Below, piece after piece: positions 9,511-13,803 of a stretch of DNA of 62,498 bases (its first letter is position 1; each line of letters starts with the position of its first letter). The stretch is taken from NCBI GenBank assembly GCA_016190895.1, contig JACPPR010000028.1, positions 1-62,498 on the forward strand, in the 5' to 3' direction. The translations under genes were made by a program, and so were the position numbers. Origin of the DNA: Chloroflexota bacterium (GTDB taxonomy: Bacteria; Chloroflexota; Dehalococcoidia; Dehalococcoidales; UBA2162). The notes under the pieces were generated by a model. That model was not told the origin of the DNA. It saw only the letters and a list, made by a program, of their open reading frames with translations, and made no database searches.

Positions 9511-9539
9511 TTGACAAAGCCTCCCAAGAATAGTATACT
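9511..9539 (+). promoter_or_regulatory. sigma70-type promoter TTGACA-17-TATACT for the solute-binding protein gene
   Basis: Consensus -35, 17-bp spacer, near-consensus -10. Confidence 0.7.
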
Positions 9540-9705
9540 CTCCGCAATCATGTAGCTATTGTTACAATATTGACTTTGCTCCATTCGGAGGATATTCGAT
9601 GAACAAGAGTATTAGCGCTGGCTGTATTTCGATATACGGATTGCTGATGCCCTTTTGAGTTATTGCAAAAGAATAGGAATCGTAAATCGACGGAGGAAAA
9701 GGCAA

Positions 9706-11561
9706 ATGAGGAAAAGTATTCTTTGGCTTGTGGTGAGTGGCTTGATGGCGCTGTCCCTGGTGCTGGCAGCCTGCGGCCCGACGGCAACACCAACGGCCCC
9801 AACGACTCCCACCACTCCGACTACCCCGACAGCTCCAACAACTCCCACAACTCCCACACAGGAAAAGCCACAGCAAGAGGCGGTGAAGCCTGCACCCGAA
9901 GGCCCCAAATATGGAGGTACGCTTACCTTCGCCCAGAACGGAGACCAGAGCGATTGGCGTCCGGAACGAAATATAACGGGGCGAATTATCGGCGCACTTT
10001 ACCAGCAGCTCTGGGAAGGCGACTGGTCAAGGGGACCAGCCGGCGGCTACGGCACCAATGAGGTTGACTGGGGGATGGGTAACAGCGACCTGTTTGAATA
10101 CAAGATGGGCTTTATTGCCGAGAGTACGAAATGGACAATAGATGAAGCTAAGAACCAAGGAACCATTGTCTACCAGGTTCGACCTGGGGTGACCTACAAC
10201 CTGAACTCAGCCAGCGAAGCCAGCCGCCTGGTTAATGGGCGAGAAGTGACGGCTGATGATGTCGTCTATGTCTTGAAGAGGGCGACTACCTGGAATCTAG
10301 CCTATATCTATAGCACTAATATCGAGCTGAGGAACGCTGATATACAAAAGACAGGCCCCAGGGAGGTTACTGTCAAGCTCCCTCTTGAGGCTTTCTACAC
10401 CGGCATAATCCGTTTTGGCGATTCGGTCTTTTTCTATCCTCCGGAGGTGGTGACGAAATACGGGGATATGTCAGATTGGAAGAATGCTGTCGGCACCGGC
10501 CCGTTCATTGTTACCGAGAACGTTCCCGGCAGTGCCATCGTTATGAAGAGGAGTCCCAATTACTGGGGGATAGACCCCGTAGGTCCGGGCAAGGGTAACC
10601 AGCTACCCTATATCGATACTTTCAGGATGCTTGTCATACCTGATGCCTCTACCCGACTAGCTGCTCTGAGGACAGGCAAGATTGACCACATGACCGGCCT
10701 TACATCGGAAGACGCTATCCAACTGCGCAAGCAGGTTCCGTCATTGCTGGAAAGAGTAGCAACATCGGCTCACGGCAGAGGCACACCGCTACTGATGAGG
10801 ATAGACCGAGCGCCCTTTAGCGATATCCGGGTACGCAAGGCAATGATGATGGCTGTCGATTTCCAATCGATACTCAAGAATTACCGGGGTGGTGTCGGGC
10901 AAATCCTGACCTATCCAGCCAGTAAAATTACCCCTTACGATAAGCTCTACCTTGACCTTGACGCGCCGGATTTCCCTGAGGAAGCCAAGGAGCTTTACAG
11001 CTATAACCCGGAAAAGTCAAAGCAGCTTCTGAAAGAAGCCGGCTATCCCAGCGGCTTTAAGACCGAGATACTCATCACCAGCACTGAGGCAGACTACTAT
11101 TCGATAATTAAGGATTACTTTGCCAGAGTGGGTATCGATATGAAGCTTGATATCGTGGAATCTAGCGTCAAGAGCGCAGTCACGGAGAAAAGGGAACACA
11201 AAGCGATGTCAACTGCCACCACGGGTCCCATAGCTCAGTTTACCTCGGGATTTACAATCCAGGGCGTAGCCGCTACAACCTCAGTATGATTGACGACCCT
11301 GTCATTAACGACGCGATGACGGAGATAAGACTGGCCGCCCTCACCGACCAGAACGAAGCTATGCGATTATACCGGGAAAAGATATTCAAATACATCGTCA
11401 CTAAGGCATATGCCGTCCCGGATGTCATCGGCACTAACCACGCTTTTTGGTGGCCCTGGCTCAAGAACTACTCCGGTGAAGAAGCCGTTGGCTACGATGA
11501 CTATAACTGGATGCAGTGGATATGGATTGACCAAGATTTGAAGAAGTCAATGGGGTACTAG
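9706..11561 (+). pseudogene. ABC transporter family 5 (peptide/nickel) solute-binding lipoprotein, frameshifted near 11270-11289 (or a sequencing error)
   Basis: Lipobox LAAC, Thr/Pro linker, PKYGGTL and GTGPF; the C-terminal part (YNLSMIDDP...WWPWLKNYSGE...WIWIDQDLKKSMGY) continues in another frame. Confidence 0.8.
9781..9858 (+). repeat. Thr-Thr-Pro linker tandem repeat (coding)
   Basis: TATPTAPTTPTTPTTPTAPTTPTTPT. Confidence 0.85.
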
Positions 11562-11592: not shown

Positions 11593-11632
11593 TAGCGGCT
11601 GGGAGAGGGCAACTCAACCAGCCGCTACTTTC
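11593..11632 (+). terminator. probable intrinsic terminator
   Basis: TAGCGGCTGG...CCAGCCGCTA stem followed by CTTT. Confidence 0.5.
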
Positions 11633-11744
11633 TGAGAAGTACAGGAATACCTTTGAGATTGGTATGGCAGTTGAGGCCACTTGACAGCAATGTAATAAAG
11701 TAGCATAAATAATATGCTCGAAAATAATCTGAGGAGGAGTGAAA

Positions 11745-13535
11745 ATGCCTGCAGCAAAAGACAAGGTCTATAAGTATCTCAATCCAGTCGGCATCCAGGA
11801 GCCGGTGGATATTCAACCTCTGGCGCCACGCCTGAAAACAATCGAAGGCAAAACCATCCATATCAGCATCACAGGCGAGCCGGATATCACCATCGCCCTT
11901 GAGAAAAAACTCAAGATGGATTATCCCGATGTCAACTGGACGATGAAGAAGTCATACACTCCTGCGCCGAACCAGTTGACGGATGAGGAAATTAAGACCA
12001 CCGATGGAGTGATAGTCGGCGTTTGCTGGTGAAGCGGGGCGGTATGGGGGCAGTTGCCCTACGTAGCCAAGCTGGAAGAAGCCGGTGTCCCGACGGTGAT
12101 GATTGACTTCGAGGACCAGGAAAGCATGATACACCATACCGGGCTGCAGCTCGGCTTTCCCAATACGCGAGTCGTCCATGCTTCACGGACAATTCCCGGC
12201 CCGGAGGATGTTGAAAACTGGGTAGAGGAAGTACTGGCTGGTTTGACCACACCATTAACGGCGAAAGAAAAGGAAAGCGGCCGCTTTGCCCCTCCCCAGG
12301 ACAGGATAATTTTCGAAGGCACTCTGGATGAAGCTCAGGTATTCTTCCAGCAGACCAGAGATGTACCCGTGCCTGTAAATGCGCCTATCTGCGTCTATTC
12401 GGATGGGCTGCCGATAGTAGCCCCCACCGAAGAGAAGGTGAAGGAAATGCTGACCGGCACCAGCCACAAGCCGGACGAGCTTATCACCTACCAGCGTGAC
12501 ATCCAACCGATGATGGTGGCGCCCCTGGGAGGCGTGGCTCAACAGGGACGGGGTGGGGGGATGGGAATGATCAGAAAGAAAGGCGAGGTGGTCTCATTCC
12601 ACCCCAATGAGTGGACAGCTACCGTAGAGAAGGTGGCGACGATTGCGGTTATGGCCGGCTGCAAACCGGAGCACCTGCCTGTAGTGCTGGCCATTGCCGA
12701 ATCAGGCTGCCGCACCGGCACCACGGTTATGAATAGTCAGGCTGTCTGCCTCAGCGGGCCTATTGTTGATGAGATAAAAATGAATACCGGATGCGGCATG
12801 TTCGGTCCCGGCAGCCCGGCCAACGCACCCATCGGCCGCGCTTACCAGCTGATGGCAATCAACCTCAGCGGCGCTATTCCGGGAGTGAACCGGATGAGCA
12901 GCCTGGGCAGTCCTATCAATAACGGCGGCACCTGTTTTGCGGAAAGAACCGCTTCCCTGCCTCCTGGCTGGAAGGGTTTGAACGAGGAGTTCGGCTTCAA
13001 AAAGAACGAAAGCGCTGTCATGGTAATGGGCTTCGAGGGCGGGCTGTCAGGACGCCAGTTCTCCCCGGGCGGCTACCGGGCATTACAGAAGAGCGGCCAC
13101 GGCGGTATCGCGCGACGTCTCGGCGTCAAGGGTATCCCCGGCCCGCACAACTGGCTGGAATACTACGTCCACAGCCTCTGGGAAGGCCGCGAAGGAGCCG
13201 TGACCCTGGTGATGGTATCCGAGATGGCCAAACACTTGCACGATTACGGCTTCAAGACCAAGGATGAGGTGTACGAGTGGCTCTGGAAAGCGAGTTTCAA
13301 GCCATTATCGGAATACAGAAACCGCTCCTGGGTCGACCTGACCACCAATGGCTGGATGGGTATCGAGGCACTCTCGGGAAAGCACTGGAAAGAGTTGCCC
13401 GACGATTACAAGTTACCGTTCGCGGGCAACAATCCGGGCATGAACTGCATCATCGTCGCCTCTAGCGAGGAGGAAATCTGTCTTAACCTCGAAGGCGGGC
13501 GCGGCACTGCTTACAGCGTCGATGCCTGGAGATAG
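11745..13535 (+). CDS. probable selenoprotein (596 aa; UGSC-like redox domain fused to a DGLP/AVMAGC domain); in-frame TGA at 12030-12032
   Basis: ORFs 11739-12032 and 12054-13535 share a frame and are joined by TGA plus 7 sense codons (GVCW-U-SGAVWGQLPYVAKLEEAGVPTV); hairpin just 3' of the TGA; GAGGAGG RBS before ATG 11745. Confidence 0.8.
12033..12068 (+). promoter_or_regulatory. candidate bacterial SECIS element
   Basis: GGC.GTA..GGGGCA-GT-TGCCC-TAC..GCC stem-loop with an apical G about 19 nt after the UGA. Confidence 0.55.
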
Positions 13536-13541
13536 GGAAAC

Positions 13542-13569
13542 GTAGGGGCAAGGCATGCCTTGCCCCTAC
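13542..13569. repeat. GTAG-type REP palindrome GTAGGGGCAAGGCATGCCTTGCCCCTAC
   Basis: Perfect palindrome with GTAG/CTAC ends; relatives at 22013-22040, 57356-57417 and 58137-58183. Confidence 0.85.
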
Positions 13570-13650
13570 AAATATTCGTAACAATTAGCGCCCATATTAC
13601 CATCGGGGTGCTGAAGTTTTAATAGGAAGACTTTCGCCATTGCTATAATA

Positions 13651-13803
13651 AAATCCCTCTCAATCTCCTTCCGATTCGTTTCACTCATACGGAATCCCGA
13701 TAAAATCGGGATGAATCGGGACTTTAATAAAGGGAGATGCCTTTGTTGTAGACACTCTTGCCTCAGGTATCCCCCTTTGACAAAGGGGGATTAAGGGGGA
13801 TTT
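13651..13803. repeat. family A repeat interrupted by a family C element (13669-13721)
   Basis: Removing TTCCGATTC...GAATCGGGA restores CAATCTCCCTTTAATAAAGGGAGAT. Confidence 0.85.

Follow-up and report, generated by a model that had tools for sequence, protein, structure and literature searches.

The window analyzed here is the whole 62,498 nt stretch of contig JACPPR010000028.1 (contig C3 of the Dehalococcoidales assembly GCA_016190895.1; 2.09 Mb in 96 contigs, 79% complete), and its forward strand carries, at 11745..13535, a gene in which an in-frame TGA almost certainly specifies selenocysteine (Sec, U). From the ATG at 11745-11747 to the TAG at 13533-13535 there is a single reading frame, the sole interruption of which is the TGA at 12030-12032 (codon 96), with no further stop or frameshift across the 596 codons. 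The list of open reading frames (ORFs) divides it into 11739..12032 (97 aa) and 12054..13535 (493 aa, with a TTG start), both in the identical frame. A Shine-Dalgarno-like sequence, GAGGAGGAG, can be read directly at 11731..11739, 5 nt upstream of the ATG. Translation with TGA read as Sec gives 596 residues followed by the TAG stop, with U96 lying within DGVIVGVCWUSGAVWGQLPYVAKLEEAGVPTVMI (motif W-U-S-G-A), and the same architecture is present in all 23 full-length paralogs of this genome. The product has no signal peptide. A first-pass annotation of this DNA had proposed that the two ORFs represent one hidden selenoprotein, and the continuous frame, together with the TGA in 23/23 full-length paralogs, bears this out: judged from its sequence, 11745-13535 is one gene for a cytoplasmic, two-domain selenoprotein of 596 residues.

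The same annotation had suggested looking for Sec machinery in the genome, and all four components were found on contig C76: selD (377 bits, itself with one in-frame TGA), selA (560 bits), selB (345 bits) and tRNA-Sec (75.3 bits), each exceeding its curated cut-off. Two tRNA-Sec matches of equal score (75.3 bits) were recorded, at C76:14092-14183 and C84:15909-16000; both are at contig ends, and they are probably one locus common to two contig ends and not two genes. TGA also serves as a regular stop here: it terminates 183 of the 797 ATG-started ORFs of at least 300 aa, and neither selA, selB nor any of the 36 matches to the solute-binding protein family SBP_bac_5 has internal stops, so a genome-wide reassignment of TGA is ruled out. 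The stops of the 24 copies of the present family in this genome are 14 TAG, 10 TAA and no TGA, versus 23% TGA among the long ORFs of the genome, a count that is not a statistical test because the copies are kin; the absence of TGA stops could mean that these mRNAs avoid carrying a further UGA.

A genome search with the read-through product as query returned these 24 matches, of which 23 are full length (53–69% identity) with exactly one TGA each, the 24th being a contig-end fragment that begins at residue 151. The TGA occupies the same aligned codon in 23/23 full-length paralogs, each time after Trp. Comparisons were extended to other genomes, with two unpublished genomes excluded from all analyses, and the kin sequences are not independent of one another. 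Among 44 loci fetched from species-representative genomes, the TGA site is kept in 20/20 same-clade loci from other Dehalococcoidales metagenome-assembled genomes (MAGs); these close loci were chosen via peptides of this one copy, and one orthologue group dominates them. Across 30 relative genomes the family was detected in 7 of the 18 belonging to the same taxonomic family (27, 17, 12, 10, 7, 4 and 3 matches, which are not gene counts because some are pieces of split genes), and it was absent from all 12 genomes of other families in the order. One TGA is present in 70 of the 80 matches in the seven kin genomes, and the remaining ten comprise seven partial matches (starting at or after residue 150) and three full-length frames. 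The latter (G407:C20, G409:C18 and G409:C15) are stop-free over about 600 aa and 33% identical to the query, and their sequences point to a sister form lacking Sec in organisms that also contain the Sec clade.

At least 120 database homologues were retrieved, all 357–504 aa in length, covering at most 83% of the query and called from just behind the TGA. When residues 1-160 were used as query, the hits among proteins of 327–1043 aa were 12 TGA-truncated forms only, with no full-length Cys form. In a quick maximum-likelihood tree the 42 rows of the clade group together (SH-like approximate likelihood-ratio test, SH-aLRT, 96), and since the copies of this genome interleave with orthologues from other MAGs, the duplications are old. 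The protein is thus a member of an old paralogous clade within one Dehalococcoidales family, with at least 23 copies in this genome.

Bacterial selenocysteine insertion sequence (SECIS) elements are hairpins found a short distance 3' of the UGA, in which the small apical loop includes a G. A SECIS-like hairpin is present at 12043..12065 on the forward strand, beginning 18 nt after the UGA, with a core stem of 12048-12051 paired to 12056-12059 (stem at +19 to +30) and the apical loop AGUU at 12052-12055. The first-pass annotation had pointed to a stem-loop with an apical G at this place, and codon usage and covariation over 43 sequences both agree with it. In the paralogs, at codons +6 to +9, Leu is encoded by TTG in 22/22 cases (versus 14% elsewhere in these genes), Arg by AGG in 16/16 (versus 20%) and Gly by GGG in 5/5 (versus 13%), while Pro is CCT in 16, CCC in five and CCG in one, yet CCG is the commonest Pro codon (41%). 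These codons are constrained beyond the amino acids they encode, and they build the stem (A/G)GGC ... GCC(U/C) and its AGUU loop. Across the alignment of 43 sequences, pair 19-30 occurs 22 times as A-U and 15 times as G-C, double changes also occur at pairs 16-34 and 17-33, and 76.2% of cells pair, versus 21–49% when the partner is slid. The covariation score of 0.191 (versus 0.133 ± 0.010) was reached by 0/500 shuffles, which is not a probability because the sequences are related. Support is poor for the outer pairs (4-6 with 42-44, and 9 with 39). Single-sequence folding of the region gives -26.7 kcal/mol (z = -1.19), and 26 of 200 shuffles fold as well; the evidence for the hairpin is thus comparative, because the folding of this copy on its own is not exceptional. 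A search of 11600-13700 against Rfam gave no SECIS-type or other match, the only row being a small RNA model at E 0.46. Taken together with the machinery on C76, UGA-96 is almost certainly read through and decoded as Sec by the SelA, SelB, SelD and tRNA-Sec of this genome, assisted by the hairpin.

The N-terminal ~160 residues (11745..12224) are, by profile match and alignment, a divergent UGSC-type (PrdB/GrdB-like) alpha/beta domain with Sec at a strand-to-helix turn. Pfam PF24696 (UGSC) matches residues 11-148 with 28.6 bits against a gathering threshold of 25; in a scan of the genome 14 paralogs match at E ≤ 0.001, seven of them under the cut-off, and the pass of the query is marginal. The NCBIfam equivalog for UGSC (NF041046) gives 23.6 bits, below its cut-off of 125, and the relatives with a UxxC motif also remain below it (52–59 bits). 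Relatives of 28–34% identity match UGSC strongly (80–86 bits) and carry the motifs GVGH-U-STC, GH-U-SSC, GD-U-GSC or G-U-DGC, with a Cys form, GVGHCSTC, in locus L048. In a joint alignment the Sec of the query coincides with that of the UxxC relatives, in line with the UGSC-like character first proposed for this part of the protein.

Within the clade itself the motif is W-U-[S/H/P/T]-[G/N/D]-[A/T], with Gly at +2 in 21 of 23 copies. The U-G-S-C/UxxC motif is not found, Cys at +3 being present in 0/23 of the own paralogs and 0/20 of the clade members from other MAGs. Position -2 is Cys in 13 of the 23 paralogs (Ala in six, Val in three, Ser in one) and in 16/20 from other MAGs. These counts speak against the CxU arrangement that had been proposed as a redox site in place of UxxC, and 'C-W-U' as a defining redox motif is ruled out, as the Cys at -2 is not conserved. 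Several distant full-length representatives have CxxC at the Sec-aligned site.

The full-length model (mean predicted local distance difference test, pLDDT, 84.7; predicted TM-score, pTM, 0.88) places Sec between strand 88-94 and helix 97-112, in a domain predicted to have a flavodoxin-like alpha/beta fold. A fold search with the whole model matched only residues 34-176, as generic flavodoxin-like (Z up to 9.8), and the best matches of the N-terminal domain (Z 8–9.8) were likewise generic: sugar-binding proteins, CheY receivers and SGNH esterases. Profile comparison with DsbE/CcmG gave weak matches (E 0.06–0.6). A thioredoxin-like fold is suggested for the UGSC family in the Global Ocean Sampling (GOS) selenoproteome paper (PMC2398784). 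As a separate observation, three loci (L109, L111 and L112, in MAGs of Dehalococcoidaceae, Desulfobacterales and Desulfatiglandales) contain a relative whose Sec site is Gly (MGGGSG), and immediately upstream of it is another gene, of 583–654 aa, with a UGSC domain; these look like tandem copies of a redox type and a non-redox type.

The C-terminal domain (residues 185-596, 12297..13532) belongs to an unnamed family, without a match in Pfam or NCBIfam. Its characteristic motifs are DGLPxxPPT, TVEKVAxNAVMAG and ANxxIGR, and the first and second of these had been taken in the first-pass annotation as features of UGSC proteins (DGLP...PPT and TVEK.A..AVMAGC); they belong to this separate domain. 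A profile built from clade, UxxC-fused, thioredoxin-fused and stand-alone members, which the query domain also matches, retrieved 7125 representative clusters at E ≤ 0.001, 2174 of them at E ≤ 1e-30. The alignment has 17 invariant columns, and those invariant in the whole family include D220, P223, E295, N360, G364, R365, E400, P406 and W409. Architectures were sampled from 48 representatives, mostly long ones, picked from the best 150 listed of the 7125: a UGSC domain is attached in 27, an AhpC-TSA/redoxin domain in four and a ferredoxin-thioredoxin reductase catalytic (beta) chain in three (one of which also has UGSC), while 15 have nothing known attached, including tandem duplicates of about 710 aa. 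The domain also occurs alone (~350 aa) or fused to thioredoxin-like domains with a CPTC motif.

Modelled alone, the C-terminal domain has a pLDDT of 82.5. The best Foldseek hit was class I fumarate hydratase (E 1.3e-3, probability 0.35, TM ~0.2), and with VIA-align none of 48,161 chains reached a Z of 5 (best 4.8). The weak top matches, class I fumarate hydratase and Fe-S serine dehydratase, do not suffice to name a fold and serve as leads only, and in themselves such weak matches do not show the predicted fold to be new. In the PDB, neither sequence nor profile searches gave a significant hit, and the ESM Atlas returned unannotated clusters only.

Cys306, in the AVMAGC motif (codon 12660..12662), is a candidate partner thiol for Sec96. 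It is present in 23/23 clade members, in 0/10 aligned UxxC relatives and in 9/9 stand-alone or thioredoxin-fused forms, and is thereby complementary to the Cys at +3, which is found in 0/23 clade members versus 10/10 UxxC relatives. A further residue, Cys397, is present in 15/23 clade members, 0/10 UxxC relatives and 9/9 stand-alone or thioredoxin-fused forms.

Immediately upstream of the selenoprotein gene, and on the same strand, is a gene for an SBP_bac_5 lipoprotein (9655..11561; PF00496, 3.5e-54; lipobox signal peptide), which confirms the adjacent solute-binding protein (SBP) gene of the first-pass annotation. It is split in two frames, a 544-aa ORF ending at 11289 (9655-11289) and a 91-aa ORF in another frame (11286-11561) that aligns with the final 85 residues of a 632-aa SBP paralog (E 3e-13), owing either to a frameshift or to an assembly error. 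A scan for promoters and terminators gave nothing specific except a promoter-like site at 9511-9539, ahead of the SBP gene. Ten nt past the stop codon of the selenoprotein gene is a perfect palindrome, GGGGCAAGGCATGCCTTGCCCC (13545-13566), which the terminator scan did not flag because it is not followed by a T-run.

In this genome, an SBP_bac_5 gene of the same orientation directly precedes 14 of the 23 copies; of the remaining copies, one is behind an SBP-preceded paralog, one has its SBP two small ORFs away and two are at contig ends. The SBPs of these cassettes have lipoprotein signal peptides and Pro/Thr-rich linkers. The 36 SBP_bac_5 matches correspond to about 35 genes, nearly all for lipoproteins of 615–660 aa, and one pair of Opp/Dpp-type ATPase genes was found in this incomplete assembly, on contig C46; many binding proteins may share one translocator. 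Recurrent neighbors include family III CoA-transferase pairs (within a few kb of selenoprotein/SBP cassettes on C12, C61, C25 and C80), uroporphyrinogen decarboxylase (URO-D)-like proteins (near cassettes on C5, C11 and C80, and adjoining a relative in L100), amidohydrolases, acyl-CoA ligases and MatE. No reductive dehalogenase gene (rdhA) scored over the Pfam cut-off in this 79% complete assembly (best 21.2 bits versus 24.3).

The distant relatives adjoin Opp-type ATP-binding cassette (ABC) transporter genes, a tripartite ATP-independent periplasmic (TRAP) permease, or MFS_2 transporters accompanied by alpha/beta-hydrolases. GH-U-SSC relatives are followed by the same three Pfam-less ORFs (~191, 135 and 413 aa) in L114, L115, L119 and L130, the four loci (Desulfatiglandales, Desulfatiglans and Desulfobacteraceae) with enough sequence beyond the gene, and the first of the three is present in L116, L118 and L120. 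The ORFs upstream include alpha/beta-hydrolases (L114, L118, L119, L120, L122 and L130), MFS_2 (L118, L120 and L122) and a tannase-like ORF (L118 and L120), and this GH-U-SSC neighborhood looks like a conserved operon.

Of the functions considered, that of a family of selenol-dependent reductases acting on imported small substrates is the likeliest. In the mechanism envisaged, the large domain would bind a small organic substrate, on which the Sec of the fused UGSC-type domain would act as a reactive selenolate; Cys306 of the large domain, or possibly the Cys at -2 in some copies, would resolve the oxidized selenium, and a thioredoxin-type system would then reduce it again. Such a cycle would make the protein a selenol-dependent reductase or reductive lyase, and each of the many paralogs, 14 of 23 of which stand behind their own lipoprotein SBP gene, would handle a different imported substrate. 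In favor of a redox role are the fusions of the large domain to UGSC, AhpC-TSA/redoxin, ferredoxin-thioredoxin reductase and CPTC thioredoxin-like domains in other lineages, the UxxC or CxxC of relatives at the aligned site and the complementary occurrence of Cys306 and the Cys at +3; in favor of a link to import are the SBP_bac_5 genes ahead of 14 of 23 copies and the importers beside distant relatives. Of the parts of this proposal, an enzyme acting on imported small molecules is the likelier one and we favor it, while thiol/selenol redox chemistry with Cys306 as candidate partner is put forward tentatively.

Several observations weigh against the proposal. No Cys is invariant across the C-domain family, and Cys306 is absent in the UxxC relatives except in L043, which lies outside the alignment and has both USTC and AVMAGC. 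Fold searches of the PDB gave no convincing match for the C-terminal domain and hence no enzymatic precedent. An SBP_bac_5 gene was found within 3 kb in only one of the 20 close loci of other MAGs, ruling out SBP pairing as a universal rule, and only two of the nine 'U-H-G-A' copies in this genome have an SBP. Finally, the first-pass annotation would have given up its selenoprotein if homologues carried a residue other than Cys, or TAA or TAG, at the Sec codon: close homologues have only TGA and distant ones TGA or Cys, as it expected, but some have Gly (MGGGSG), Ser (W-S-G), Met, Thr or Ile at the aligned site, and the N-terminal domain is therefore not always a redox module.

Some alternatives concern the gene itself. 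Were the TGA a true stop, there would be two separate genes, for a 95-residue protein and for a 493-residue protein started at TTG 12054, and it is the case that the annotated gene of each database relative (at least 120) comprises the downstream part only, that TGA is a normal stop in this genome and that a G-rich stretch precedes the TTG. This is very improbable, given that the frame is continuous in 23/23 own and 20/20 other-MAG copies with the stop always TGA and never TAA or TAG, that protein conservation crosses both the TGA and the stretch between it and the called start, and that the UGSC match (residues 11-148) spans it. Relatives such as L048 moreover have Cys at this codon in an uninterrupted ORF, and in the full-length model the region is a single alpha/beta domain, with the 10-residue blocks of 81-160 at pLDDT 78–96. 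The neighboring SBP gene looks frameshifted, which indicates that local errors or decay occur, and 12030-12032 could on that account mark a pseudogene or an assembly error; with TGA at the same codon in 43/43 clade members from at least a dozen independent assemblies, one TGA in 70/80 kin-genome matches and no other stop or frameshift in 596 codons, this is hardly conceivable.

Other alternatives accept the selenoprotein and differ on what Sec does. Sec96 might be a non-redox catalytic nucleophile or a metal or cofactor ligand, with no selenenylsulfide cycle, in a hydrolase, transferase or lyase acting on an imported substrate, and the turn Sm-W-U-x-G-A between strand and helix would then act like a nucleophile elbow. 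The lack of a resolving Cys at +3 in all 23 and 20 clade members is consistent with this, as are the small residue at -2, the Gly at +2 in 21/23 and the position of the motif between strand 88-94 and helix 97-112; a distant full-length relative (P0199) has W-S-G, with Ser for Sec, and SGNH esterases are among the generic fold matches (Z 8.4–9.0). Those matches, however, are flavodoxin-like in general and rank equally with CheY and sugar-binding proteins, no His or Asp triad was identified, and the fusion partners of the C-terminal domain in other lineages are thiol-disulfide modules. To our knowledge, the Sec residue of every characterized Sec enzyme either takes part in redox chemistry or coordinates the metal of a redox center, and a non-redox role is on the unlikely side. 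It is distinctly less probable that the UGSC-type domain is a redox sensor or switch, regulating or protecting the fused enzyme domain from outside catalysis. Many members of the large-domain family do stand alone (~350 aa), and the variants with Gly or other residues at the Sec site imply that the large domain can work without a redox-active N-terminal domain. The stand-alone forms nevertheless keep Cys306 and Cys397 (9/9 each), which suggests a free thioredoxin-like partner, and the retention of a costly UGA and SECIS in 23/23 old paralogs, among which no replacement by Cys was found, speaks for strong selection on the reactivity of Sec, as would be expected of a catalytic residue more than of a switch.

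The selenol-dependent reductase preferred here can be compared with several known systems. The UGSC family was first listed as 'UGSC-containing protein' in the GOS selenoproteome, as a UxxC family with 255 Sec and 21 Cys forms (PMC2398784). The N-terminal 150 residues of the query resemble it in exceeding the Pfam gathering score, in having Sec at the homologous strand-helix turn and in the predominance of Sec over Cys forms, which the survey also reports (PMC2398784). The query differs in its NCBIfam score (23.6 versus 125 bits), in its W-U-S-G-A motif in place of U-G-S-C/UxxC, in the fusion to a 410-residue domain and in the occurrence of at least 23 paralogs per genome. The same survey describes a 'UGSC/Unknown_1 fusion', in which UGSC is joined to a conserved domain that is found alone in some aquatic organisms (PMC2398784). 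This architecture matches that of the query and the UxxC relatives, and Unknown_1 may be the present C-terminal domain; as far as the survey text goes, the forms described there are UxxC and there is no W-U-x-G-A clade, paralog expansion or solute-binding link (PMC2398784). No paper describing the clade, its expansion or the SBP link was found in the limited literature collection searched. BSepDB reports two Dehalococcoidia MAGs with 49 and 46 selenoprotein genes of unspecified families, with no mention of UGSC in the available part of its text, and a 2026 review lists the 'UGSC-containing protein' with the UGSC motif and an unknown function.

A mechanistic parallel is offered by PrdB (TIGR04483) and GrdB (PF07355), in which a partner subunit or domain holds the substrate, the UxxC Sec in a turn of an alpha/beta domain attacks it, and thiols re-reduce the Sec. 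One UxxC relative of the query has a weak PrdB match (18.4 bits, E 0.0011, cut-off 300), while the query has no significant match to either model, no PrdA- or GrdE-like pyruvoyl proprotein was recognized, and the partner of the query is a different, uncharacterized domain. Dehalococcoides carry arsenals of paralogous reductive dehalogenases (rdhA). The likeness to these is one of working principle only: a small Dehalococcoidales genome with dozens of paralogs of one catalytic family, presumably for different substrates; the protein family, cofactor and location are unrelated.

Gene callers cut these genes at the TGA, and each of the at least 120 database relatives starts downstream of it; annotation consequently lacks a whole domain together with the putative catalytic residue, and selenoprotein counts for these organisms are too low by dozens of genes. 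For a 2.1-Mb genome to maintain 23 or more Sec codons in one family, without any replacement by Cys having been found, selection for selenium chemistry must be strong, and the need of these uncultured Dehalococcoidales for selenium high. The C-terminal domain represents a family of 7125 representative clusters, about 410 residues long, without a name, structure or known reaction, and since it is repeatedly fused to thiol/selenol redox modules and encoded next to importers, it is a concrete candidate, open to testing, for a new reductase class. A bolder combination of these points, which we hold to be rather unlikely as a whole, is that uncultured Dehalococcoidales possess a Sec-obligate arsenal of at least two dozen paralogous reductases, of a fold without a solved relative, many of them wired to their own extracellular binding protein and all of these binding proteins feeding one shared Opp-type importer. 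The rdhA arsenals of Dehalococcoides would then have a selenium-dependent counterpart, one that reduces or reductively cleaves many scavenged environmental organic compounds for energy or carbon. If true, the very large selenoproteomes reported for Dehalococcoidia would be due mainly to this single family.

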